From the IMG/VR virus record IMGVR_UViG_3300031994_000061, positions 21,868-85,867 of that record: DNA of 64,000 bases; one strand, 5' to 3'. This document shows positions 702 through 55,170 of this stretch, piece by piece (positions within the stretch are counted from its first letter, which is position 1; every line of letters starts with the position of its first letter). The notes under the pieces are model-generated. The model did not search any database. It was not told the DNA's origin and saw nothing but the letters and a program-made list of their open reading frames with translations. The stretch comes from a virus (Duplodnaviria; Caudoviricetes). The position numbers and the translations under genes are program-made.

Positions 702-1730
702 TTATAGCTTTTTTAGTTCATTTATCTTAACCTGTTCAGCCTTTATTTTATTCTTGATGGCAGCTATTGCCAGTTTCTTTGCCTCATCTTTTTCTAGGCA
801 CAGTACGAAGTCGCTGTAGGACTTATGTTCATTATCGCTTCTAAGTGCCACACCAGGGAAGAGTAATTGTCTAACCTTCGTAGCCTTTGCTTCCTGTTTT
901 GTCACATAAAACGAGAAGGAATATCCACAGAAGACAGCACAGATACATTTCTCAAGGTCATATCCAAGGCTTTCCTTGGATACATATTCAGCATTAGTTA
1001 TAGCCTTTAATGTACCAGACTTGGTGTTAACTAGATATACTGGTACTGTAAGTTTCTTGAACGTCTCACCCTTTATAGCGAACTTATACAGGTCTCCGAA
1101 GGTAAGCTTGCTCCTTTCTTTAAACACTGGAGGTTCTCCGCTTAGTTCAACAACATATTTCTTGATGTACTTTTCAAGCTCCTGTCTAGTTAGTTCCCCC
1201 AACTCATCTGGCATATCGATACCATATTCATCAGAAAACACACTTCCACGTTCCACACGTCTTTGTCTCTTCCAGTTTGGTTTTTTAACGAGTTCGCCAA
1301 CACTAACTTCAAGCTTATTGGGTCTGTAATCCTGTGGTGTTGTCTGGTTGGACACATACAAGGACACGTTATTACGTTTCAAGTAAGCATGAATAAGGTT
1401 TCCTGGCTTGCCTTCCTTCTTGTAGAGTGTGAAACCGCATGACTCAAGGAATTTGATAACGTTATTGAATGCGGTATCAAGGTAAACTGGCATGTACTGT
1501 ATGGTGGTTCTAAGTTCTGTCAGTTCCTCGTCTGTGAGGTTATAGTAGTGTTCCTGCTTGAACAGCCTACTGTAGACGTATTCTGGCTTCGCTCCCCATC
1601 TTGACTTGAATGGGCTGTGATATACATAACCGCCACAGTCTTTACCCTTGTACATATGGAGTGGCTGCTCATATGGCAGACTATTCACCCAGTCATATAC
1701 GTTATTGAAGTATGGTACAATATTGCTCAT
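702..1730 (-). CDS. hypothetical protein (342 aa)
   Basis: long ORF in a tightly packed minus-strand gene array. Confidence 0.8.
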   Translation of the reverse strand: MSNIVPYFNNVYDWVNSLPYEQPLHMYKGKDCGGYVYHSPFKSRWGAKPEYVYSRLFKQEHYYNLTDEELTELRTTIQYMPVYLDTAFNNVIKFLESCGFTLYKKEGKPGNLIHAYLKRNNVSLYVSNQTTPQDYRPNKLEVSVGELVKKPNWKRQRRVERGSVFSDEYGIDMPDELGELTRQELEKYIKKYVVELSGEPPVFKERSKLTFGDLYKFAIKGETFKKLTVPVYLVNTKSGTLKAITNAEYVSKESLGYDLEKCICAVFCGYSFSFYVTKQEAKATKVRQLLFPGVALRSDNEHKSYSDFVLCLEKDEAKKLAIAAIKNKIKAEQVKINELKKL

Positions 1731-1811
1731 TTTTGGAAATACAATTTTAAACTATAAGTTGTGTAGTTTGTTAATAACCATCAACAAATTGTCTTAAAAT
1801 ATCAGCTTCTG

Positions 1812-2111
1812 TCATTTTTTTACGTAATCTGGTTTACCTAATTGGATTCTGAATTTCTGTGCGCACTCCTGGCAGAGGAATTGATTACCCTTGTCAGTGA
1901 TAATCAGATACATATAGTCTTCGTCCTTGAAGGGTTTCTCACAGTTGAAACACTTGGTCTGTTTCAAATGCCAAGAGAGGCAATGCTTAACTGCCATGTG
2001 ATGAAAGTCTCCGTAGTTGAATCTAACACCATTCTCTGGTGCTACGTCTTCGACTGTGTATGTAGTGGTAGTGACCTTTACAATCTTTGGGAGTTCGTTA
2101 CAATCTTTCAT
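1812..2111 (-). CDS. hypothetical protein with CxxC...CxxC zinc-finger-like motif
   Basis: CFNC and CQEC motifs. Confidence 0.65.
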   Translation of the reverse strand: MKDCNELPKIVKVTTTTYTVEDVAPENGVRFNYGDFHHMAVKHCLSWHLKQTKCFNCEKPFKDEDYMYLIITDKGNQFLCQECAQKFRIQLGKPDYVKK

Positions 2112-2437
2112 ATGATTTTCTTTTTATTGATTACTTTACCGTCAAATGACTTGTCATAGGGGATTGCTTCTTTCTCATGAATAAAGACAATTCCAGCTGA
2201 TACTGGTATTTCCTCGTCTCCGCTTTCCCACAGTTTCTCGCATAGGTAGTAAGGTGGGTATAGTTTTGTCACCCTAAATTTGGCATTGGGGTGTGTTACT
2301 AGTATTCTGGTAATGCGGGTGTTATTAGGAAATCTCTCATTAATTTCCTTTTTTGTCCTAATTCCAGAGTAGTACACATCCTTTGTATTTTCCATTGAGC
2401 CATCAAAGGAAATCAAGTCACATACTTTATACTTCAT
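2108..2437 (-). CDS. hypothetical protein
   Basis: ORF with a 4-bp overlap to its neighbour. Confidence 0.7.
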   Translation of the reverse strand: MKYKVCDLISFDGSMENTKDVYYSGIRTKKEINERFPNNTRITRILVTHPNAKFRVTKLYPPYYLCEKLWESGDEEIPVSAGIVFIHEKEAIPYDKSFDGKVINKKKII

Positions 2438-2438
2438 G

Positions 2439-2846
2439 TTATTGTATATTTACTTTTTTCATTATAGCCCTATCCTTAAACATCGTAGACACCTCAAACC
2501 CAACGCTTTGATAGAGTTTTATCAGTGCTCCAAGTTCTATACCTCTTCCTGGCTTCGCCACTAGCACCATATTCTTGTTTGAATAGAGTTGTAGGACATA
2601 TTCCAGTATTCTCTTACCGTAGCCCCGTCTTCTGTAGCAGAGTCCAGTGTTAAAGTCCCAGAGTGCCACACATGGTCTCCCATTTGCTGTAAGTTCTGCC
2701 AGCACACCATCGTGTGGGAAGTCGTTTTTAACTTCTTCTACGATGATTGCTGACATAACTTCATTTGTGGACACATTCCTTAGATTAATATTCTTATACC
2801 CAAAGGAACTATTCGTTGTTATTGTGAAATAGAATTCCTCGTTCAT
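2439..2846 (-). CDS. GNAT-family acetyltransferase
   Basis: acetyl-CoA motif RRRGYGKRIL and C-terminal LYQSVGF. Confidence 0.75.
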   Translation of the reverse strand: MNEEFYFTITTNSSFGYKNINLRNVSTNEVMSAIIVEEVKNDFPHDGVLAELTANGRPCVALWDFNTGLCYRRRGYGKRILEYVLQLYSNKNMVLVAKPGRGIELGALIKLYQSVGFEVSTMFKDRAIMKKVNIQ

Positions 2847-3271
2847 TTGAGAAGATTTATCTGTCTGATGGATTCAGAGCAAGCACCGACAAGTTCGTCG
2901 TTGAAGAGTTTCTTTCTGATTAACGCCTTACCCTTTAGACTTGCGCTGTTATAGCCCCTTACAAGCCCCAACATCTTATTGAGTGGCTGTAGGTCAAGGG
3001 AAATCATTTCACGTCTTGTTGGTAATCTGTCAACGCTTATAATGAACTTGTTAGCCCATGCTGGTTGATTTTCAGCTATGTTGGCGTAGATATGCTGTTC
3101 AGCAAACTCCTGGTCACCGAACTTTTCTGCCTTGTTGATGTCATCAGTAAGTTCGAAATCCCAGTACCACATTTTAATACCATCAACCATCTTGGCCTTC
3201 TGCACCATCTTCCTATAGTAGTTGACGGAATTATTTTCTTTTGATACTAATTTAATTACGAAAATTGCCAT
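2843..3271 (-). CDS. hypothetical protein
   Basis: ORF directly downstream of the host-type promoter at 3292-3323. Confidence 0.75.
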   Translation of the reverse strand: MAIFVIKLVSKENNSVNYYRKMVQKAKMVDGIKMWYWDFELTDDINKAEKFGDQEFAEQHIYANIAENQPAWANKFIISVDRLPTRREMISLDLQPLNKMLGLVRGYNSASLKGKALIRKKLFNDELVGACSESIRQINLLK

Positions 3272-21769: not shown

Positions 21770-22121
21770 TGTTAATCATCGCTTTTAGTGATGGTGTTAT
21801 GTTCTTTATTCCAAACAATACGTTCTCGTATACGGTTGGGTCAATCTCAGTAATTTCACCAGCCAACACACTATTAACAAAGTCTAATGACGGAATTGGT
21901 AATCCTTTTGGTTCATATGAGATATTACAATGTCCACCATTAACATTGTCGAGAATACATATATAGTCAATGATAGGTGTGTAGTCTTCATAACCAATAC
22001 ACCTTTGGAAATACCCATCGTTAATTTTGTAGACATGGCCTTCCTTGTAGGTATACTTCTTAAACTCGCTCAAGCTTATATACTTATTTATGCTGCGGAT
22101 GTAAATATCATTATTCTTCAT
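21759..22121 (-). CDS. hypothetical protein
   Basis: ORF track. Confidence 0.65.
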   Translation of the reverse strand: MKNNDIYIRSINKYISLSEFKKYTYKEGHVYKINDGYFQRCIGYEDYTPIIDYICILDNVNGGHCNISYEPKGLPIPSLDFVNSVLAGEITEIDPTVYENVLFGIKNITPSLKAMINNGK

Positions 22122-22364: not shown

Positions 22365-22745
22365 TTATTTAGAATTAATATATATCATTTCGTACCAATC
22401 ACCGTCTTCAACAATCTCAAAGCCTTCGGATTTATACAGGTGTAATGCCCTGTAGTTACCATGAGCGCAGGACAGGTATATGTTTATCTCACCACACATT
22501 TCTTTTATATGCCTCAGCATTTGTCTACCAATACCTTTATTTCGGTTATTTTCATTCCAAATACCAAAACTATGGAGGTATATACCACCTCTAATTTTAG
22601 AATAATAAATCGATAATGACCCGATTTTTTTTTTGGTTGACTCCATAATAGCGTATAACGTACCACTTGGCGCAAGTGGTACATCGTATCCACCCTCACA
22701 TAGCGGAATATAATTACCTTCGAATTTCAAACTTATATCTTCCAT
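22365..22745 (-). CDS. GNAT-family acetyltransferase
   Basis: NRNKGIGRQML and NYRALHLYKSEGF. Confidence 0.85.
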   Translation of the reverse strand: MEDISLKFEGNYIPLCEGGYDVPLAPSGTLYAIMESTKKKIGSLSIYYSKIRGGIYLHSFGIWNENNRNKGIGRQMLRHIKEMCGEINIYLSCAHGNYRALHLYKSEGFEIVEDGDWYEMIYINSK

Positions 22746-39225: not shown

Positions 39226-39292
39226 ATTACTGATTTTTTACTAATACGAAATATTTATATTTAAAATAAGTTGAAAAATTAATATATTAATT

Positions 39293-41050
39293 ATGAATAA
39301 AGTAAACACTAACGACACTCTTAACAGAATGAAGTCATTAATGAATTACGGACTTCAGACTGAGAGTAAAAAAGCACCATACAGTGCGGTTGAGTACCAG
39401 AGGGTTGGTGCTGATGGAAAGGTTTATGGTATTGTACGTGAGGGTACTAAGTATTACATAAAGTCTGCTCCTAACAAGCAAAACCTTATCAAAGAAGACT
39501 TTAGCTACATTGGTGGTTTTAGAAACAGAAAGGACAATGAGTACACCAGCTATGCTAATGCTCAGAAAAACTTTGACATGAAGATGATGTCTCTTAAGGA
39601 GGCTTACAACAATCCTACCTTCAATGTTGAGTCTTGGGACTTGAACAAAAAGGAAATGGTTGTTACTGAGGCTTCTGATAAGATGAAGGGTGAGATTCTT
39701 CGTGAGCGTCAGATTATGAAGAATGCCATGAATATCATGGAGAAGAAAGGCGCAATCTGCTGCGACGGACAGGAAGGTTTTAAGGATAATATCAAGAAAG
39801 AAACCCCAAAGACTGGAGATGCAAAGGATGCACCAGACGGATTCACTGAAGAACCAGCAGAGGAGTTCAAGGCTAAGGAGAATATCAAGGAAGAAGAGGT
39901 TCTTGGTTGGAACAGAAAGAGTCCAGACTATATGGACAAGTCTCATGGAACTGAAATCGGTGATAGCGCACCATTCGATGATGCTGAGGCACGTAACATC
40001 GATGACCAGGATAAGAAGGTAACTAAGACTGGCGAAATGAAGAACGGTGTTGTTGAGAATCATGGTACTTCAATGCACGATACAGATGACCAGAACAAGC
40101 CAGCTGTAGGTGTTGGTGAAGGTCCTTCAGATGATAACAACAAGCCTTTCGATGATGAGAAGGGTAAACAGATTGACGAGGCTATTGACGGTATCGAAGG
40201 AGACGTTGATGATGTTGAAGGCGAGGGAGAACCTGTAGGTGATGAGCCAATGGGTGATGACCTTGGTGGGGACGAGCCAATTGGTGATGACCTTGGTGCA
40301 GAAGGTGACGAGCTTGGTGACGATATGGGTGATGACCTTGGAGACGAGGGTGACGAATTTGGTGATGACGAATTCGGTGGTGAGGATGACCTTGAACAGC
40401 GTATCAGTGCAATGGAGGACATTCTTTCACAGATTGCTTCAAAGCTTGGAATCGAGACTCCAGCAGTGGACGCTGATGCATATGGTGATGATGAACTTTT
40501 CGATGGAGAGGGTGATGACCTTGGTGGTGATGAACTTGGTGCAGAAGGTGACGAATTTGGTGATGATAAATTCGGTGGTGATGACCTTGGCGGTGAGGGA
40601 GAAGTAGAACCAGAAGATGACATCGAGGACGGACTTGACAGAGAGTGCGGAATGAATCCTGGTGCAGGTATGACTTACGAGTCAAGAAACAACGAGGGAA
40701 TCCAGATTTTCGAGACAGCAGCTTATAGGAGAGCTATGGGCAAGCAGAGAATGAATGAAGAGGGTATGACCCCTTTTAAGGACGCTGGTCGTGTTCCACA
40801 GGGAAACATGAACAAGCTTGATGACTTCGGAAAGCACCCAGCATATCAGAAGGTTGTTATGGACCTTCCTCCAAAGGATATGAAGGAGTTCCCAGGCAAC
40901 TACGATATGAATGATGATTCTGTTAAGAATGATACACCTTATGGTGAGAAGATTGGTGATGGCGCACCATTTGAGATTGACCCAGAGGCAATCGACAATG
41001 CAATCGCTGAAGCTTTCGACCGTTTAAAAAAAAAATCTAACGGAAAGTAA
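39293..41050 (+). CDS. acidic prohead core/scaffold-like protein
   Basis: TATTTATA at 39252; Asp/Glu/Gly-rich repeats; many I/L-x-E sites. Confidence 0.7.
   Translation: MNKVNTNDTLNRMKSLMNYGLQTESKKAPYSAVEYQRVGADGKVYGIVREGTKYYIKSAPNKQNLIKEDFSYIGGFRNRKDNEYTSYANAQKNFDMKMMSLKEAYNNPTFNVESWDLNKKEMVVTEASDKMKGEILRERQIMKNAMNIMEKKGAICCDGQEGFKDNIKKETPKTGDAKDAPDGFTEEPAEEFKAKENIKEEEVLGWNRKSPDYMDKSHGTEIGDSAPFDDAEARNIDDQDKKVTKTGEMKNGVVENHGTSMHDTDDQNKPAVGVGEGPSDDNNKPFDDEKGKQIDEAIDGIEGDVDDVEGEGEPVGDEPMGDDLGGDEPIGDDLGAEGDELGDDMGDDLGDEGDEFGDDEFGGEDDLEQRISAMEDILSQIASKLGIETPAVDADAYGDDELFDGEGDDLGGDELGAEGDEFGDDKFGGDDLGGEGEVEPEDDIEDGLDRECGMNPGAGMTYESRNNEGIQIFETAAYRRAMGKQRMNEEGMTPFKDAGRVPQGNMNKLDDFGKHPAYQKVVMDLPPKDMKEFPGNYDMNDDSVKNDTPYGEKIGDGAPFEIDPEAIDNAIAEAFDRLKKKSNGK
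40240..40600 (+). repeat. degenerate tandem GGTGATGA(C/A)CTTGGT repeats (GDDLG/GDELG/GDEFG)
   Basis: about a dozen imperfect 15-nt units in frame. Confidence 0.8.
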
Positions 41051-41099
41051 TAGACCAACAAAATTAAGAATACCTAACAGTGCACCACTTGGAGGTGAC

Positions 41100-41525
41100 A
41101 TGGATGGCATGGGTGGTTTAGATAATGCTCCAATGCCTCCAGTGGACGCTGACCCAGGTATGCCTATGGATGGAGAAACACCTCCACCCCCACCTCCAGC
41201 TCCAGAAACAGACCCAATTGCAGGAGGACCTGATGATGACCCGCTTGCAGGAGACCCAAACGCATTGAGTGCAGGAGACCCAAATGCAGCAGGTGGAGAT
41301 ATTTCACAGAAGTATCAACAATTGTCACCAGACCAGCAGAAAGCAGCTGACAAGTATGTTGACAGTATGCTTAACACTGAGTCAATTGATAGGATAAGGA
41401 GAGCCATAGACGAGACTTTTTCAACCATACTGGATGATACCCAGGAAGGTACTGAAAGACCTCAGAAAGAGCTTGGGAGTGATGTTAAAGGTAATTTAAA
41501 TAATCCATATACACCTGGAATATAA
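41100..41525 (+). CDS. Pro/acidic protein, probably the frameshift extension of 39293-41050
   Basis: frame is open back to 41028, inside the A10 run. Confidence 0.65.
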   Translation: MDGMGGLDNAPMPPVDADPGMPMDGETPPPPPPAPETDPIAGGPDDDPLAGDPNALSAGDPNAAGGDISQKYQQLSPDQQKAADKYVDSMLNTESIDRIRRAIDETFSTILDDTQEGTERPQKELGSDVKGNLNNPYTPGI

Positions 41526-41529
41526 AATA

Positions 41530-41562
41530 AAAAGGGGATACTGCTTGCAGTGTCCCTTTTTC
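41530..41562 (+). terminator. intrinsic terminator
   Basis: AAAGGGGATACTGC-tt-GCAGTGTCCCTTTTT. Confidence 0.75.
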
Positions 41563-41595
41563 ATTGTCTTATATATTTATATTAAAATTAATCTT

Positions 41596-43397: not shown

Positions 43398-45278
43398 ATG
43401 ATATACGACAGACAGGAAATGGCCATAGATTATGCAACTTGTTACGCTGACAAGTCCAGAATCACATTCATAGAGAAATATTTTAGTACATTCAATGCTA
43501 TAAAGGGTAAGAAAACACAGTTTCACTGTTTTCCAAGACAGAGAGCGTTCTTGAAAGCCCTTTCGGAGAATAGAAATGTAGTAGCTGTTAAGCCAAGACA
43601 GTGTGGTATCACAACCCTATCAAGTGCTTGGGCAGCAGCCCAGTGTGCATTTGCCCCAAAGGATGCGCCAGAAACAATCCTGTGTATCGCAAACAAACTT
43701 GAGCAGGCACAGGAAATTATTATCAAGGTTAGGGATTTTCTTGAACAAGTACCAAGGTGGTATTGGGGTGACGAATATTTTTCTCCAGACCCTAATTCCG
43801 ATAAAAACATCACATCAATTTTCTTGAAAGATGCAAAGGGTGAGTTGAAACTGTTTAACGGTTGCAGGGTTATAGCACGTGCATCAGGTCCTAATGCATC
43901 TCGTGGTATCTCGGCTGTATCTGTATTGATTCTTGACGAGGCTGCATTCATTGAAGAAGGTGTGGCTGCATTTACCACAGCTGCTGCTACAATGGCTTCT
44001 AACCCTAATTCTAAGACCGTCATGGTGTCAACGCCTAACGGTAAGGATGAGTTGTACTACAACACCTATAGACAGGCTCTGAGCCACGAAAACAACTTTG
44101 TGGCTGTACAGTTCCGTTGGTATCAAGACCCACGTTTCAACAAGTATCTCGTATGGAAGAAGAAAAACGAGGAGACTGGAGAATGGATGTTTGACCAAGA
44201 CCCTATTGTTGACCATGAGGGAAGTGTAAAGTACGACGAGGAAAGATGGGCTAGGCTTGAACATGATGGTTGGAAACCAGATGCACCTTGGTACGACGAA
44301 ATGTGCAAACAGTTCAACAATGATTCAATGAAGATTGCACAGGAGCTTGATGTATCATTCATGGGTTCTAACGATAACGTTATTGCACCAGAGTTTATTG
44401 AAATGCAGGAAAAGCTTAACGTTAGAGAACCACTTGAAGATTTCAAAGACCCACTCGTAGAAGAAACTTGGTTCTGGAAGCTTCCTATTGAAGGACACAG
44501 GTACATATGCGCTGTTGACCCTTCGAGGGGTACAGCAGCCGATAGAACAGCCATAGAGGTCATTGATATGGATGGTAGAGATGAGAATGGAATACCAATC
44601 ATAGAACAGGTCGCTGAATATGTAGGAAAGAAACTTGGTGATGACATTGGTGCAATAGCATACCAGTATGCTACCATGTATAATGATGCATTCGTTGTTG
44701 TAGATGCCACTGGTGGACAGGGTGATGCTGCAATAATAACCATGCTTCAGATGGGTTATAAGAACATGTACTATGAGGATATGAACCAGAAGACATATAT
44801 GTTGCAAAGGGCAACAAAGATATATGATAGTTATACAGATAAACTTCCTGGTTTCCATTTCCAGGGTAACAGATACCCTGTATTAGCTAACTTTGCTGGA
44901 CTGGTTAGAAACAATGAGTTTAAGATAAGGTCAGCAAGGGTTATCAATGAGCTTGATACATGGATATTCAAGGGAGATAATGCTAGAATGGACCACATGG
45001 ACGGTGCTCACGATGACACCATAACATCACTTGCTATGGGACTTTTCGTTATGCAATACTCATTCAACAGGTTGCAGAGCACTATAAAGAAGGATAAAGC
45101 AATACTTAACGCATATATGATGACAAACTCATTTAAGGTTAAAAAACCTCAGATGGGAAATGGAAGGGATATGTCACCTGGTATTGGTTTACCATTTTAT
45201 AAACAGGATAAGATGAAGAACTCATATAGCAGTACACAATATGGAAACTGTATGTGGTTATTTGGTGGCGTAAAGTAA
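43398..45278 (+). CDS. terL: terminase large subunit (T4 gp17-like)
   Basis: KPRQCGITT, LILDEAAFI, MVSTPNG, AQELDVSF, AVDPSRG, HDDTI. Confidence 0.92.
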   Translation: MIYDRQEMAIDYATCYADKSRITFIEKYFSTFNAIKGKKTQFHCFPRQRAFLKALSENRNVVAVKPRQCGITTLSSAWAAAQCAFAPKDAPETILCIANKLEQAQEIIIKVRDFLEQVPRWYWGDEYFSPDPNSDKNITSIFLKDAKGELKLFNGCRVIARASGPNASRGISAVSVLILDEAAFIEEGVAAFTTAAATMASNPNSKTVMVSTPNGKDELYYNTYRQALSHENNFVAVQFRWYQDPRFNKYLVWKKKNEETGEWMFDQDPIVDHEGSVKYDEERWARLEHDGWKPDAPWYDEMCKQFNNDSMKIAQELDVSFMGSNDNVIAPEFIEMQEKLNVREPLEDFKDPLVEETWFWKLPIEGHRYICAVDPSRGTAADRTAIEVIDMDGRDENGIPIIEQVAEYVGKKLGDDIGAIAYQYATMYNDAFVVVDATGGQGDAAIITMLQMGYKNMYYEDMNQKTYMLQRATKIYDSYTDKLPGFHFQGNRYPVLANFAGLVRNNEFKIRSARVINELDTWIFKGDNARMDHMDGAHDDTITSLAMGLFVMQYSFNRLQSTIKKDKAILNAYMMTNSFKVKKPQMGNGRDMSPGIGLPFYKQDKMKNSYSSTQYGNCMWLFGGVK

Positions 45279-45289
45279 TATTTATAGTT

Positions 45290-46153
45290 ATGAAAATAAT
45301 AAGTATAAAAGAGAGTCAATTTGATAGGTGTCTGGTTTTGGAAACTTGGACAAACAAAAATGGTGAACTAAAAAATCACCTCAAGAACATTGCTCATATG
45401 GATGATAAAACATTGAAGACATTAGCAAACGTATTTCCTACTTACTATCTGGATTATCTGTTACACATAAGCCCTAATACTGAGGACGAGGACTATTATT
45501 ATGAGTTGGTTGATGTCGCTGATAATAATTCAGAATATTCAATGTCATATTATATAGAGAAGTTAAATTTACCAATAGATAAACGTTTTGGGTACTATGT
45601 AAAAAATAAAATAAACAGATGGCCAAGGAGGTATCGTGATGATTCTAGAATTTATCATACATATGCAGAGATTCCAGATAACGTTACGTTGAACTATAAG
45701 AAGCCATTCATAAACAAAGTGTTAATTCACAATTGTTACAATGATGGGGATGCTGAAAGTATCTTGCTGAATGGGTTTAAGTATGGGCAGTATTTAAATA
45801 ATCTAGCTTGGACTTATGGTAATAAAAATAATGGTAATTATGGATTTGCATATGAATTTAATGACTACGCAGAAAATTATGGTAAATATCCGAACTATGG
45901 AGTGGAGGGTGTTGTTTTTGTTGGCAGTGGCGTTATGGTAACCCATCATGGCGATAGAAAAAATAATGAACAATTTTCACCAAATGAATGTATTTTTGAT
46001 ATAAATTCAGTCTCTAGTTTTGTTTGTAGATTTAAGATTTCTCACGGATATTGCGAAATATATAATACTAACAACAAATTAGTTTTCAAAAAAGATAACT
46101 ATACTGTGCCTAAAATGTTAGAATGGATTTCAAATAACCTTATAAAATATTAA
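45290..46153 (+). CDS. cargo-like protein with a domain paralogous to the fourth domain of 35218-39225
   Basis: start MKIISIKESQF after TATTTATA at 45279; LIH...SILLNGF..G...LAWT...YGFAY...YG.EGVVFVGSGV..THHGD. Confidence 0.7.
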   Translation: MKIISIKESQFDRCLVLETWTNKNGELKNHLKNIAHMDDKTLKTLANVFPTYYLDYLLHISPNTEDEDYYYELVDVADNNSEYSMSYYIEKLNLPIDKRFGYYVKNKINRWPRRYRDDSRIYHTYAEIPDNVTLNYKKPFINKVLIHNCYNDGDAESILLNGFKYGQYLNNLAWTYGNKNNGNYGFAYEFNDYAENYGKYPNYGVEGVVFVGSGVMVTHHGDRKNNEQFSPNECIFDINSVSSFVCRFKISHGYCEIYNTNNKLVFKKDNYTVPKMLEWISNNLIKY

Positions 46154-46207: not shown

Positions 46208-48262
46208 ATGGCTAAAAAAAGAAATACAGTATTTCAAGCTTTGGATAAAGCCATCACTGGTAACTGGAAATCTCCAGCAGAGCCTATAGTGCCACACGTA
46301 AACACGTATGACTTGAGTGGTTCTGATAATAAGATTCTCTATAGAACCAATGATAAGGAAGACTACTTACAGAAGAAGCTTGAACTTCAACAGGATAAGT
46401 TTCTTAAGGAAAGATGGGTTAAGGCTAATGTAAACCTATCGGTTTCTGCATATGCTGGTTTGAACAATATAAAGTTGATGTACCGTGATGCTGACTTGAT
46501 GGATGCATTCCCAGAAATAGGTGCAGCTCTTGATATTGTATCTGAGGAGAGCACCATTGTGAACGATAAGGGAATGGTGGTTAATGTCTACTCGAAATCG
46601 GACAGAATCAGAAGTATACTTGAGGACTTATTCGTAAACAGGCTTAATATACAACTTACAGGACAAATGATTATCCGTGCAATGTGTAAGTACGGAAACC
46701 AGTTCATGCTCCTTGACATCGACCACAAGAATGGTGTAAAGGGATGGAAGCAGATGCCAGTATTCAATGTTGAGAGACTTGAAAACGGTATATTGAATCC
46801 TTATGGTGCTGGTATGTCAATAGCTGTTAACGGTGCTGACATCAAGGATTCTGATATGTCAACACAATTTATATGGATTGATGACAACCAAGCGCAAATA
46901 CCATTCCGTGACTGGCAGGTTGCGCACTTCAGACTACTTACTAACTCGCTTTATTTACCTTATGGTGTAAGTTATCTGAATGCAGCACGTAGGCACTGGA
47001 GAATGCTCTCGCTCATGGAGGACATGATGCTTATCTATCGTCTTGAGCGTTCAATTGAAAGACGTGTATATAAGATATTCGTTGGTGCTATTGATGATGC
47101 TGACGTTCCAGCTTACATTGAGCAGATAGCAAATGAGTTTAAGAGAACGCCAATCATCGACCCAATAACAGGACAGGTTGACCTTAGGAAGAACATATTG
47201 TCAGTTGACCAGGATATCTTCATCCCAGTTCGTGATGAGAATGCTCCTACCCCAATTGATACACTTTCAGCAGCACAGAATATGACAGCATTGGATGACA
47301 TCAAGTTCGTGCAGAACAAGGTGCTTACAGCCCTTAGAATACCTAGGTCATTCTTGAATTTCGATGAGGCAACTGGCGAAGGTAAGAACCTTGCACTTAT
47401 GGATATAAGGTTTACAAGAACAGTTAACAGGATACAGCAGGCATTCTTGATGGAACTTACAAAGGTTGCAACCATACATCTATTTTTGCTTGGATTTGAT
47501 GATGAATTAACTAATTTCACATTATCAATGAATAATCCATCAACACAGGCAGAGCAGCTTGAGATTGAGAATATGCAGAAGAAGATTGATGCTGTCAGAG
47601 ACGCTGTTTCAGACCCTGGTAACGGTCTTCCAGTTATGTCACAGACACGTGCGTTGAAGCAGATTATGAAGTGGTCTGACAAGGAAATTAAAGAGAATCT
47701 TGAAGAGATTCGTCTTGAGAAGGGCATCTCTGCTGAACTTGAGAAGACAGCACAGATTATCAAGAAGACTGGTATCTTCGATACTGTTGATAGAATTTAC
47801 GGAGAACCTGGTGCTGAATACATGGATGACCAGCAAGGAGGTATGCCTGGACAAGGCGGTGCTGGAGGCATGGGCGGTGGAGGTAGCATGGGAGCACCAC
47901 CACCTCCTCCAACTGATTTCGGAAGTGAAATGGATGGTCTTGGAACTCCTGGTGCAGATGAAAATGGAGACATCAACGGACAGGAAGGGTCAATGCCTAC
48001 TGGAGAAATGGGTCCTGACCAAACAGGGCAGACACTTGAAGGTATTGACAGGAAGAAGAAGGTTATCAGTGAACAGTCAAACCTTTTCGAACAGTATCTC
48101 TCATCACTTACAGGACATACAAGTTCACCAAAGGAGACGAAGTACGAAAGAGCTAAGGTGTATGACAGCAACTCACTACTGATAAATGAGGAGTTTGACA
48201 AGATGATTAATGCCCTCGGAAAATTTGTTGAGGATGATGATATTTATAAAGAAAATGAATAA
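46208..48262 (+). CDS. portal protein (T4 gp20-like)
   Basis: MDAFPEIGAALD, YRLERSIERRVYKI, DIFIPVR, DDIKF...ALRIP. Confidence 0.92.
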   Translation: MAKKRNTVFQALDKAITGNWKSPAEPIVPHVNTYDLSGSDNKILYRTNDKEDYLQKKLELQQDKFLKERWVKANVNLSVSAYAGLNNIKLMYRDADLMDAFPEIGAALDIVSEESTIVNDKGMVVNVYSKSDRIRSILEDLFVNRLNIQLTGQMIIRAMCKYGNQFMLLDIDHKNGVKGWKQMPVFNVERLENGILNPYGAGMSIAVNGADIKDSDMSTQFIWIDDNQAQIPFRDWQVAHFRLLTNSLYLPYGVSYLNAARRHWRMLSLMEDMMLIYRLERSIERRVYKIFVGAIDDADVPAYIEQIANEFKRTPIIDPITGQVDLRKNILSVDQDIFIPVRDENAPTPIDTLSAAQNMTALDDIKFVQNKVLTALRIPRSFLNFDEATGEGKNLALMDIRFTRTVNRIQQAFLMELTKVATIHLFLLGFDDELTNFTLSMNNPSTQAEQLEIENMQKKIDAVRDAVSDPGNGLPVMSQTRALKQIMKWSDKEIKENLEEIRLEKGISAELEKTAQIIKKTGIFDTVDRIYGEPGAEYMDDQQGGMPGQGGAGGMGGGGSMGAPPPPPTDFGSEMDGLGTPGADENGDINGQEGSMPTGEMGPDQTGQTLEGIDRKKKVISEQSNLFEQYLSSLTGHTSSPKETKYERAKVYDSNSLLINEEFDKMINALGKFVEDDDIYKENE

Positions 48263-49233: not shown

Positions 49234-49295
49234 GTATATTCCCCATTGTTTTTTCAACTTTTTTTGTTATATTTTATATGTAAAAAAAAAATCTA

Positions 49296-50377: not shown

Positions 50378-50647
50378 TTAATCCCTACCATAAAGTTCTA
50401 CGCTTGCTGCCTGTGCCTTTTTGAGGCATATTATAGCCTGCATCACATTGTCTTTTACAATTTGTTCTGTTGAACTTGGTGATGGACTTGCAAATGGAAT
50501 CCATCCACTTACAGTTAATTCAGTTAAGGCATCTATAATGTGTTGAAGTTGCCTTGTACTTGACCCTTCTTTTAATACTCTCTTTACAGATTCACTTACA
50601 ATGTTACGAAGGTCATCCTGTGTTAGTTGTATTGGTTGTTTATTCAT
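50378..50647 (-). CDS. small protein with cargo leader
   Basis: MNKQPIQLTQDDLRNIVSESVKRVLKEG. Confidence 0.75.
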   Translation of the reverse strand: MNKQPIQLTQDDLRNIVSESVKRVLKEGSSTRQLQHIIDALTELTVSGWIPFASPSPSSTEQIVKDNVMQAIICLKKAQAASVELYGRD

Positions 50648-51333
50648 GAGTTCAATATATTTTTAATCTTATTTATTTTCTCATTCAATGCTGGCTTTAC
50701 ATCGTTTGATGTGTTAGCTTCTACGTATTGCTGTAGCTCTTCTGGTTCTCCTATCCATGCACCTGGTGTTGATGGGTCTGATACAACGTCCCAGCATATA
50801 AGTTCGAAGTCTTCTCCTACGATATATTGTCCTAATTTTTGCTCAACAGAGCCAACACCTCTTGAGGATACACCAATTTTAATTCCGTTTAGAAGCAGGT
50901 TTGCCATCTGGTCTCCACGTGTTGATACAATACCGTATTTTCTAAATCCGTATGATGTATTAATCATACACTTTCCGACAAGTGTTCTACCCTCCCAGTG
51001 AAGTTCTGTTATATTGATTGCGATTCTGTCTAGGTCTATTGTTGATTCTGCTGGGTGGTTAAGTTCACCTATTGCGTTACTGTTAACAATTTTCTTTTGA
51101 TAAAGTTCAACCTGTTTCTTAAGTACATTCTCTGGGTATATTCTACCGTTTGCGTTCTTAATACCGAACTTCTGGAATACAGCATCAACAATAAATGGAT
51201 GTGGTACGTGCCATTCCCCATCAATACCCTCTGTAATACTCTGAGGGTTCTTAATGTACATGTATCCATCCCTCTCTATGAGGATACCATGACCTGTCTT
51301 ACCTTCCTTTATTATTTCAAGTTCCTTTTTCAT
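50644..51333 (-). CDS. prohead core protein protease (T4 gp21-like)
   Basis: KNANGRIYP, GELNHP, IGVSSRGVGS, WDVVSDPSTPGA; start MKKELE at 51333 after minus-strand TATTTATA at 51351-51358. Confidence 0.92.
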   Translation of the reverse strand: MKKELEIIKEGKTGHGILIERDGYMYIKNPQSITEGIDGEWHVPHPFIVDAVFQKFGIKNANGRIYPENVLKKQVELYQKKIVNSNAIGELNHPAESTIDLDRIAINITELHWEGRTLVGKCMINTSYGFRKYGIVSTRGDQMANLLLNGIKIGVSSRGVGSVEQKLGQYIVGEDFELICWDVVSDPSTPGAWIGEPEELQQYVEANTSNDVKPALNEKINKIKNILNS

Positions 51334-51508
51334 TACTAGTAATTTTTTATTATAAATATTTCGCACTCTCCAAATATTTATATAATAGACATATAATCAC
51401 AGGTATGGAATATGACTGTAAATCAACATTTTTTGAGTGGTTTACAAAGTTTTTTTGTATTTGTGGTATATTTATATTTAAAATAATAACGTATTTAAAC
51501 TATTTTCT

Positions 51509-53133: not shown

Positions 53134-55170
53134 ATGAAAGAATTTTTATCTAGTGGCGTAGTTGGTAATATTGAGTACAACGCCCAGAAACAGATACGTG
53201 AGAGCATTCAGAACCGTTGGGACCAGCTCGGATTTACTGAGGGTCTTCCAGAGGGTATCAAGGAGAATGTTGCTACGTTGTATGAGAATGAGGCTAAGCA
53301 CTTGATTTATGAGGCTACAGCTTCTGACAATAGCGGTTCATTCGAGACTGTGGTATTCCCTATCATCCGTAGGGTATTCAGCAGACTTCTTGCTAATGAC
53401 ATCGTTTCAGTACAGGCTATGAACCTTCCTGTAGGTAAGTTGTTCTTCATCCTCCCTGTTACTTCAGAGAGAGAGTGGGAGCTTCCAGCAGAGATGACTG
53501 GCGACACTGAGCCTGGTGATATTGTAGACGGAACAACTGGTCGTCACCTTGGTCTTATGGGTTATGACAGAGTTAACCGTAACAAGGAAGGACGTGTTGA
53601 GCCACGTTACTATCTCCCAGACGAGACAATCAATGAGCTTCAGAATGCATGGTACATCCCAGTTCTTAGCGACGAGGATACCTATGACACATTCGACGCT
53701 GCTAAGGAAGCTGCTATCGCAGCTGGTCTTAATCCAACAGCTATTCGTAGAGTAGGACCAGAGGTTACTCAGTACTTCCAGAAGAGTCTTTACGACTTGT
53801 TCTACAATGACTTCTTGTATGACAACTCAAAGGGTAAGGTTACTATTAAGGTTGGTGAGGCTATCCCAGTATTCTTGACCCCTGGTGGTGTTCGTCCATT
53901 CGGTGCTGACAACTTGAATCAGTACTTCCAGAGTGGATTCGACGGAACTATCCGTAACGTCATCCTTGAGATTGATGGTTTCTCTTCATTCAACGCTTCT
54001 AAGTTGACTGGTCCTGACGGAAACGAAATGGACACTGAAGAGTTCCTTGCTTCATTGAAGGTTATCACACAGAAGGCTATTGCAGCTCAGAACGCTCCTG
54101 GTTCAGAGGACGTTAAGACTTCTGCTTTCAGAAAGTTTGAGTCTGTTCCATTCAGAGTAGTTACTCAGAAGTATGGTAAGGGTATCGTAGAGTACGGTGC
54201 TGCTTGCGACGCAGAGGGTAAGATGTATATCGAGCTTGACCTTGCTAAGCCAGTTATCCAGCAGGCTGGAACAATCGATGGCTACATCGGTGTTGCTGCT
54301 TCAGAGCTTGACGCTGCAATTGTTAAGAGTGGAAGCACTATTGACTACGAGGCAACTAAGGAGAATATCAAGTCTTTGTTCAAGATTGCTTGGGCACAGT
54401 ATGATTCTCTTGAGCTTGAGACTGAAATCGGTGAGGTTTCATTCAAGTTGGATTCAGTAACTGTATCAGTTGTAGAGAGAAAGCTTCGTGCTACCTGGTC
54501 TCCAGAGCTTGCACAGGACGTTTCTGCATTCCACAACATCGACGCAGAGGCTGAGTTGACAGCTATCCTTTCAGAGCAGATTGCTGCTGAGATTGACCGT
54601 GAGATTCTTCGTGACCTTCGTAAGGGTGCACCTTGGCAGGCACGTTGGGATGTCAATGGTTGGAGAAGAATGGCTGCATTCTCTACAAACTACACTCAGA
54701 AGGACTGGAATCAAGAGTTGATGACTAAGATTAACCAGATTTCTGCACAGATTCACAAGTCTACACTTCGTGGTGGTGCTAACTTCATCGTAGTATCTTC
54801 AGAGATTAGCGCATTGTTCGATAACTTGGAGTTCTTCCACGTATCAGATGCTTCAGCAGAGAGCGACCAGTACAACATGGGTATTGAGAAGATTGGTTCA
54901 CTTAGTGGACGTTACACTGTTTATCGTGACCCATATTCTCCACACTGGTCAATTATCATTGGTCACAAGGGTAAGTCACTTCTTGATACTGGTTATATCT
55001 ATGCACCATATGTACCAATGCAGTTGACTCCTACAATGTACAACCCATTCAACTTTGCACCAGTAAAGGGTATCATGACTCGTTACGCTAAGAAGATGGT
55101 TAACAACCGTTACTATGGACACGTTCGTGTTGACGGTCTTGTACACTGGTCAATCAATGAGTTCAGATAA
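53134..55170 (+). CDS. major capsid protein (T4 gp23-like) with a large insertion
   Basis: IIRRVF...SVQAMNLPVG, RKLRATWSPELAQD, DAEAELTAILSEQIAAEIDREI, YAPYVP, GIMTRYA. Confidence 0.95.
   Translation: MKEFLSSGVVGNIEYNAQKQIRESIQNRWDQLGFTEGLPEGIKENVATLYENEAKHLIYEATASDNSGSFETVVFPIIRRVFSRLLANDIVSVQAMNLPVGKLFFILPVTSEREWELPAEMTGDTEPGDIVDGTTGRHLGLMGYDRVNRNKEGRVEPRYYLPDETINELQNAWYIPVLSDEDTYDTFDAAKEAAIAAGLNPTAIRRVGPEVTQYFQKSLYDLFYNDFLYDNSKGKVTIKVGEAIPVFLTPGGVRPFGADNLNQYFQSGFDGTIRNVILEIDGFSSFNASKLTGPDGNEMDTEEFLASLKVITQKAIAAQNAPGSEDVKTSAFRKFESVPFRVVTQKYGKGIVEYGAACDAEGKMYIELDLAKPVIQQAGTIDGYIGVAASELDAAIVKSGSTIDYEATKENIKSLFKIAWAQYDSLELETEIGEVSFKLDSVTVSVVERKLRATWSPELAQDVSAFHNIDAEAELTAILSEQIAAEIDREILRDLRKGAPWQARWDVNGWRRMAAFSTNYTQKDWNQELMTKINQISAQIHKSTLRGGANFIVVSSEISALFDNLEFFHVSDASAESDQYNMGIEKIGSLSGRYTVYRDPYSPHWSIIIGHKGKSLLDTGYIYAPYVPMQLTPTMYNPFNFAPVKGIMTRYAKKMVNNRYYGHVRVDGLVHWSINEFR

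Follow-up and report, generated by a model that had tools for sequence, protein, structure and literature searches.

Comparative support for a programmed recoding site at a run of ten adenines linking two late reading frames of an uncultured T4-like phage

Introduction

Are two adjacent reading frames in the late region of a phage two separate genes, or one unit that is read in two frames? The question is raised by a stretch of 64,000 nucleotides (nt), hereafter the window, from a virus of the Duplodnaviria (Caudoviricetes). The window spans positions 21,868 to 85,867 of the IMG/VR record IMGVR_UViG_3300031994_000061, an 85.9-kb record with a completeness of 29% by CheckV. Within it, an open reading frame (ORF) for an acidic protein of 585 amino acids (aa), ORF1, runs through ten consecutive adenines (A10) and stops shortly behind them, and a second frame, ORF2, opens inside the same run. 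A model that had seen only the letters and their ORFs (the sequence-only reading) had proposed that a programmed change of frame within the run links the two.

We gathered homologous-locus DNA from IMG/VR and from metagenomes, some of them assemblies of the human gut, and read every junction between the two frames. The proposed link is supported: all 89 distinct junctions carry a slip site, the linker behind the junction shows selection, and one distant relative (L174) has a natural fusion. Taken together, these comparative data support the A10 run as a programmed recoding site joining ORF1 to ORF2, and make it very probable that an ORF1-ORF2 fusion is made in a fraction of the products.

Results

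A run of ten adenines lies where the two frames overlap

Positions 41021-41050 of the window read CGT TTA AAA AAA AAA TCT AAC GGA AAG TAA, so that the end of ORF1 and the ten As at 41026-41035 are as the sequence-only reading had described them; the C-terminus of ORF1 is ...AFDRLKKKSNGK*. The ORF2 frame is indeed at +1 relative to ORF1, closed by a TAA at 41025-41027 and open from 41028, and its translation is KKNLTESNRPTKLRIPNSAPLGGDM. No ATG, GTG or TTG occurs in this frame 5' of 41100 in the window. The elements at the junction are as follows.

39293 to 41050, plus strand: ORF1, 585 aa, acidic
41026 to 41035, plus strand: A10 slip site, TTA AAA AAA AAA in the ORF1 frame, by direct reading; A7 to A11 in 85 of 89 distinct junctions
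41028 to 41525, plus strand: ORF2 frame (+1), a 165-codon extension, with ATG 41100 inside conserved coding sequence
41037 to 41048, plus strand: L-T-E-S in the ORF2 frame, a candidate prohead-protease site directly behind the junction
41048 to 41050, plus strand: TAA stop of ORF1, four codons past A10
ATG at 41100, end at 41525, plus strand: ORF2, 141 aa from the ATG, in the +1 frame relative to ORF1

An mRNA with nine As is predicted to give a product of 743 aa reading ...RLKKNLTES..., and one with twelve As a product of 744 aa reading ...RLKKKNLTES...; eleven As would lead to an immediate stop (LKKKI*). The sizes of 585 and about 740 aa put forward by the sequence-only reading hold, at 585 and 743-744 aa. 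The -1 frame is a dead end in the window (ATC TAA): TT[A AAA AAA] is a slippery heptamer in phase, but ORF2 is not in the -1 frame.

The length of the run is by itself within chance in this AT-rich window, where A9 matches occur 6 times against 3.4 expected and at least 6 times in 19 of 100 shuffles. The case for recoding therefore rests on context and conservation. Codon usage is part of that context. Lysine is encoded by AAA 13 times and by AAG 40 times in ORF1 (278 and 425 times in the late genes of the window), and since ORF1 prefers AAG by 40:13 yet keeps AAA AAA AAA at this place, the A run appears to be selected as nucleotides.

The window holds two further A10 runs. One, at 22625-22634 on the minus strand, lies inside ORF 22365-22745, which encodes a 126-aa GNAT acetyltransferase, and reads ACC AAA AAA AAA ATC; both other frames soon close there, and slippage would merely truncate the enzyme. 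The other, at 49282-49291, is followed by TCTA and lies immediately 5' of the ATG of ORF 49296, in a noncoding leader. The 15-mer at this last run, TAAAAAAAAAATCTA, is identical to the 15-mer of the slip site at 41025-41039.

Every homologous junction carries a slip site, in three frame layouts

All 89 distinct junctions have a slip site where the frames overlap, and in 88 of them ORF2 is in a frame other than that of ORF1. In all 88 two-frame junctions the ORF2 frame extends at least 13 nt back into ORF1 and covers the slip site. The junctions are distributed as follows.

ORF2 at +1, A10: 31 junctions
ORF2 at +1, A11: 1 junction
ORF2 at -1, A11: 1 junction
ORF2 at -1, A10: 14 junctions
ORF2 at -1, A9: 23 junctions
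ORF2 at -1, A8: 4 junctions
ORF2 at -1, A7: 10 junctions
ORF2 at -1, without an A run: 4 junctions
ORF1 and ORF2 in frame (L174), A11: 1 junction

The sequence-only reading had named homologous loci as a check on both the run and the frame offset. The run is kept, with A7-A11 in 85 of the 89 junctions (A9-A11 in 71) and in relatives down to about 33% identity, whereas the offset varies: 32 junctions have the +1 layout and 56 the -1 layout, 52 of the latter with A7-A11. A rule drawn from the first 20 loci, by which A10 would go with +1 and A9 with -1, was rejected, as the 14 A10 junctions at -1 contradict it.

Among the +1 loci the run occupies two codon phases, and the codon 3' of it varies (TCT in the window; GGT, GAT, AGA, AGT and GCA elsewhere). 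On a tree of ORF1, the +1 state has arisen at least four times. At the -1 junctions the sites are more diverse. Three of the four without an A run (L071, L073 and L074) have an in-phase A_AAT_TTC heptamer with a stop immediately after it (A_AAT_TTC TGA/TAA occurs in L071-L075), and the fourth (L180) has A_AAT_TTT together with A_AAG, the stop following four codons on. Two relatives (L136 and L144) read A_AAA_AAG TAA at the junction, and TCA AAA AAA GCT TAA is an example of an A7 site.

One pair of loci isolates the run itself. L123 (NFZD01012523.1), a single assembly with A11, and L018, with A9, share 99.2% identity across 778 nt, the run being their sole difference, and this places ORF2 at +1 in one and at -1 in the other. 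A run of A10, which would put the two ORFs in frame in this clade, was not seen in it.

Signs of selection on the ORF2 frame upstream of any start codon

If the ORF2 frame is translated through the junction, it should be conserved as protein 5' of its first possible start. We compared a block of 10 codons, RPTKLEIPNS, that lies 5' of any start codon. All 10 third positions vary among its 16 distinct versions; the pairwise differences are distributed 170:72:550 over the three codon positions, and the codon differences comprise 477 synonymous and 167 non-synonymous changes. This pattern indicates that the ORF2 frame is under protein-level selection 5' of any start codon; the two ORFs are both under purifying selection.

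The start codon itself is variable among relatives. Most have an ATG or GTG near the position of the window's ATG, and in L009, L016, L050, L087 and L106 a GTG stands at that very position. In L078 and L063 the first ATG of the ORF2 frame comes only after 109 and 62 codons, respectively. The GGAGGT ahead of the window's ATG was considered as a ribosome-binding site and rejected: it encodes a conserved L-G-G, written GGT GGC and otherwise in relatives, and the gene leaders of the window lack Shine-Dalgarno motifs.

In the distant relative L174 (positions 926-3010 of QZMA01007912.1), ORF1 and ORF2 form a single ORF of 694 aa. The N-terminal 504 residues are similar to ORF1 (E 3e-28 and 7e-15), and the C-terminal 150 to what L078 encodes in its -1 frame (E 9e-37). 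The join spans A11, and both other frames stop just after it (AAC TAA; ACT AAG TGA), suggesting a reversed layout in which the long form would be the default and slippage would yield short forms. A search with the ORF2 query among proteins longer than 290 aa returned no fused form, which by the tool's own account is weak evidence. The best 120 of 860 ORF1 homologs likewise include no protein of fused length, all being of 515-666 aa.

A protease-type motif stands directly behind the junction

The sequence-only reading had noticed an L-T-E behind the junction, and this observation extends to the family: an [LIVM]xE follows the slip site in the ORF2 frame in 87 of 88 junctions, whereas random stretches of 20 residues contain one in 37% of cases. 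In a 42-sequence alignment the Glu of the junction [LIV]xE motif is invariant. A second candidate site and a candidate enzyme are also encoded in the window.

41370 to 41384, plus strand: L-N-T-E-S in ORF2, a second candidate cleavage site, with the E118-S119 pair kept in at least 90% of relatives
50644 to 51366, minus strand: prohead serine protease of the T4 gp21 type (Peptidase_S77, E 2.5e-25; score 89.6 bits, cut-off 27)

T4 gp21 cleaves after Glu in short motifs, among them ITE-6 and LTE-619 of Alt (PMC5694885), and strips targeting peptides from core proteins (PMC9958956). By analogy, the gp21-type protease of the window is the probable enzyme for the [LIV]xE sites and, as it is encoded in the window, the fusion would be cut just behind the junction inside the prohead. 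Late proteins encoded at 45290, 51509, 53134 (the major capsid protein), 55819 and 41596 have short N-terminal leaders ending in IKES, VRES, IRES or LKES, which look like protease-removed propeptides or T4-type targeting tags. The protease gene lies on the minus strand amid plus-strand late head genes, and a copy of the late-promoter-like motif TATTTATA is found near its start on each strand (51351, minus; 51375, plus).

ORF1 and ORF2 are bracketed by one promoter-like motif and one terminator-like hairpin

The motif TATTTATA occurs 25 times in the window against 6.2 expected, 21 times on the plus strand and mostly 10-70 nt 5' of late-gene starts, which marks it as a candidate element of late promoters. 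Its opposite strand reads TATAAATA, the late-promoter octamer of T4. Two elements flank the ORF1-ORF2 unit.

39252 to 39259, plus strand: TATTTATA late-promoter-like motif before ORF1, the sole copy ahead of 41574
41530 to 41561, plus strand: intrinsic-terminator-like hairpin closing the unit, 14 pairs, loop of 4, T tail

The next copy after 39252 is at 41574, beyond ORF2, with none between the two ORFs. Because the motif at 39252 and the hairpin at 41530-41561 bracket both, ORF1 and ORF2 would form one transcription unit. The sequence-only reading had stated that the ORF at 41100 has neither a TATTTATA nor an AT-rich leader of its own, and it was right on both counts: the copies at 39252 and 41574 only flank the unit, and the 30 nt 5' of ATG 41100 are G+C-rich, which sets them apart from all other leaders in the window, these being AT-rich and without a Shine-Dalgarno motif. 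ORF2 thus lacks the signals that all other genes of the window carry.

Predicted properties of ORF1 and the extension

ORF1 has a pI of 4.25 and 145 Asp and Glu among its 585 residues. Its AlphaFold2 (AF2) model, built from 37 sequences, has a mean predicted local distance difference test score (pLDDT) of 51, with 361 residues below pLDDT 50, and the protein is predicted to be mostly disordered; a small N-terminal beta/helix domain is modeled, as is a C-terminal helix ending in RLKKK at the slip site. Compared with 48,161 PDB representatives, the model gave a best Z of 5.9, under the background of the tool, so that no fold is assignable. In the model of the extension, residues 1-88 form a predicted disordered linker rich in Pro, Gly and Asp, followed by three helices within residues 89-137.

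All 860 ORF1 homologs are uncharacterised, and the window's own ORF1 protein is present on two contigs. Neither Pfam nor PHROGs matched ORF1, ORF2 or the extended ORF2, and an ESM Atlas search matched only virus clusters of 'hypothetical protein'. Searches of the locus and of ORF1 by blastn and tblastn against 50,697 phage records gave no match; no cultured or annotated relative with an ORF1 gene is therefore found among them. From its acidity, its predicted disorder and its genomic position, ORF1 may be a head-core, scaffold-like or ejected protein.

The genomic position is that of a T4-like head module.

43398 to 45278: large terminase
46208 to 48262: gp20-type portal
53134 to 55170: gp23-type major capsid protein

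The major capsid protein matches only distant T4-like phages, and the gene directly 5' of ORF1 encodes a polyvalent protein of 1335 aa that carries an ART-PolyVal domain. The ORF1/ORF2 family is found in rumen and human-gut metagenomes, with L142, L182 and L186 among the human-gut assemblies, and contigs of related phages reach 410-430 kb. The clade of the window is represented in rumen samples such as IMG 3300028805 and 3300031994.

Discussion

How might the fusion arise and what would become of it? By default, decoding would yield the 585-aa acidic protein. Inside the A10 run a fraction of products would shift to the +1 frame, giving the 743-744-aa ORF1-ORF2 fusion. We lean toward RNA polymerase as the slipping machine, with A9 or A12 mRNA as the outcome: the enzyme would realign on ten A:T pairs, about the length of the RNA-DNA hybrid, and leave a mixed mRNA pool in which the loss of one A or the gain of two brings ORF2 into frame. 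The fusion would then be taken into the prohead through its ORF1 part, acting as a carrier, and the gp21-type protease would cleave after L-T-E, so that the extension is delivered at a set, minor level, either as passenger or as tether.

Two explanations would do without any fusion. ORF2 could be a small gene of the usual kind that starts at ATG 41100, the A run being no more than a Lys-rich tail of ORF1. A GGAGGT four nt upstream of that ATG, and the ATG or GTG found nearby in most relatives, are what such a gene would show; yet no other gene of the window uses a Shine-Dalgarno motif, in the 24 codons 5' of the ATG the protein sequence is conserved and most changes are synonymous, L078 and L063 run for 109 and 62 codons without an ATG, the ORF2 frame always reaches back to the slip site (by an overlap of at least 13 nt), no promoter motif lies between the ORFs, and L174 has them fused in frame. 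We consider this explanation very improbable. Still less credible is a homopolymer error, the true run being A9 or A12 in one continuous gene, or a freshly formed pseudogene. Homopolymers are error-prone, L123 and L018 differ solely in the run, and L174 is in frame. Against this, the A10/+1 layout is seen in 31 distinct junctions drawn from numerous independent samples and assemblers, the window's protein is present on two contigs, no fused length appears among the best 120 homologs, and purifying selection acts on both ORFs. Moreover, A9 is out of frame in the A9 clade and no single run length suits all clades. An assembly error, which the sequence-only reading had named as one outcome that would undo its proposal, is excluded by these many independent A10/+1 junctions together with the lack of a common in-frame run length.

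The fusion could instead be made by the ribosome, and we regard this as possible if rather unlikely for the window: on a uniform A10 mRNA, ribosomes with tRNA-Lys on AAA codons would slide along the poly-A to +1 or -2. Ribosomes are documented to slide and to change frame on A runs, and among these events are -2 and +1 moves into the +1 frame (PMC5009743), and homologous genes may use either mechanism, as for dnaX (PMC1088944). Relatives with in-phase classical -1 sites and a zero-frame stop just behind them (A_AAT_TTC, A_AAA_AAG), as well as the 10 A7 junctions, point the same way. In the window, however, a -1 shift leads straight to a stop (ATC TAA). The known +1 sites of the prfB or phage PSA type pair a shift-prone P-site codon with an A site that holds a stop or is decoded slowly, whereas here the codon after the run varies and the stop is four codons off. 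A +1 or -2 slip would need just 4 to 8 As, yet at least ten are present in 32 of 32 +1 junctions. No conserved downstream structure was found, and Shine-Dalgarno motifs are not in use in the window. The RNA around the run folds no better than its shuffles (z = -0.37 downstream, -0.23 upstream), nor does the RNA downstream of the L071 heptamer, and RNAalifold returned 0 pairs for 19 sequences. Stimulatory elements are not obligatory for -1 frameshifting.

Slippage by RNA polymerase is favored by run length: none of the 32 +1 junctions has fewer than 10 As, whereas -1 junctions go down to A7 or to no run at all. That the +1 state has arisen at least four times again favors the polymerase, since such a change would come readily only where two or more frames are supplied beforehand. 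The two codon phases of the run among +1 loci, the non-conserved codon after it, the lack of a predicted RNA structure and the leaders without Shine-Dalgarno motifs point the same way. Such slippage is efficient from nine A or T (PMC1088944); it adds one or more bases and occasionally drops one or two, so that the downstream sequence is read in all three phases (PMC1088944; PMC5009743). An A11 template in Citrobacter rodentium tssM1 gives transcripts with 10 to 15 As (PMC4256274). Polymerase slipping on ten or more As would supply all three frames at a time, and this may be what let the family move repeatedly among the -1, +1 and in-frame layouts.

Several observations weigh against this account of the locus. 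The +1 frame requires either the loss of one A or the gain of two, events rarer than the gain of one (PMC5009743). In the relatives with A7, with A_AAA_AAG and a stop, or with A_AAT_TTC and a stop, the site lacks either the length or the uniform run that polymerase slippage needs; the family thus certainly includes ribosomal-looking sites, and the A10 sites could work likewise. The ORF1 tree behind the repeated origins of +1 is a quick search rather than a finished tree, and L174 is a single 3.4-kb assembly whose frame could be a homopolymer error. By analogy with dnaX, the simplest picture of the family as a whole would be ribosomal frameshifting in some lineages and polymerase slippage in others, serving the same pair of products.

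The comparison with dnaX can be drawn closely. The Thermus thermophilus gene, which makes tau and gamma by slippage on A9 (PMC1088944; PMC5009743), likewise has at least nine As in the sense strand near its 3' end, and its two products are made in a set ratio, as those of the window would be. Its homologs show the lineage mix seen in the ORF1 family, with a homopolymer in Thermus and ribosomal frameshifting on A_AAA_AAG in E. coli, and L174, where A11 is followed by a stop in each of the other two frames, matches the Thermus layout exactly. The window differs in that the short form is the default and the slip is needed for the long form, in that +1 is required, and in that the product is a phage protein of the late/head region. 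C. rodentium tssM1 and Shigella mxiE and spa13 have a homopolymer, A11 or T9, just ahead of a stop and yield a longer product by slippage (PMC4256274; PMC1088944; PMC5009743). Our locus shares with them the poly-A ahead of the zero-frame stop, the startless C-terminal domain in another frame and the lack of a nearby Shine-Dalgarno or RNA structure, and both lengths are presumably needed; for tssM1, transcripts one A shorter and several As longer have been observed. Those are host secretion genes with experimental proof, whereas here the evidence is comparative, the phage is uncultured and three frame configurations occur.

Among phages, the major head protein of Lactobacillus phage A2 and the G/GT tail chaperone of lambda, both by -1 frameshifting, are late genes with a standard product and, at a fixed ratio to it, a minor form that is longer at the C-terminus, both for use in assembling the virion (PMC5009743). 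Their sites are short and ribosomal; ours is a 10-nt homopolymer, read to +1, with a protease motif right after the junction, in an acidic, predicted-disordered protein that is no capsid or tail subunit. In Listeria phage PSA, capsid and tail proteins are extended by +1 frameshifts. T4 itself offers a parallel in the prohead core and ejected proteins cut by gp21, namely gp22, gp67, the internal proteins and Alt (PMC9958956; PMC5694885). The window has a T4-type portal, capsid, terminase and protease, ORF1 resembles the core proteins in being acidic and predicted to be disordered, the late leaders of the window end in [LIV][KR]ES, and the C-terminus of T4 Alt is trimmed by gp21 at LTE, the same tripeptide as the junction motif. 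In T4, however, core cargo is not known to be attached by recoding, neither ORF1 nor ORF2 was found to resemble a T4 core protein in sequence or fold, and cleavage of the fusion is here an inference.

The slippage mechanism is thus a known one, from Thermus dnaX, mxiE, tssM1 and insertion sequence (IS) elements, and the ORF1/ORF2 gene family is undescribed. Less common are the +1 direction, the three layouts and several site types within one family, and the protease motif at the junction. Gene callers split the locus into two 'hypothetical proteins', where comparison points to one expression unit whose two products are nested; with 860 homologs, the family is a large one, so far undescribed, in giant phages of the rumen and human gut. 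Tentatively, recoding may serve as a cargo-loading device, in which the slip would fuse the ORF2 passenger to ORF1 and the protease free it at [LIV]xE, so that slippage both meters and targets a minor head component.

For annotation, an A run with a short zero-frame tail, followed by [LIV]xE in another frame, offers a rule by which such pairs could be rejoined in T4-like giant phages. Within one gene, the family presents a rare natural series of classical heptamers, of A7-A8 runs and of A9-A11 runs in the -1, +1 and in-frame layouts. It could help to show in which cases slippage in phages is left to the ribosome and in which to the polymerase, and by what means the +1 frame is served. If polymerase is the slipping machine at runs of at least 10 As, the same series would trace the evolution of the direction and efficiency of slippage, and the invariant protease motif at the junction makes a testable idea of how minor head components may be metered and released.

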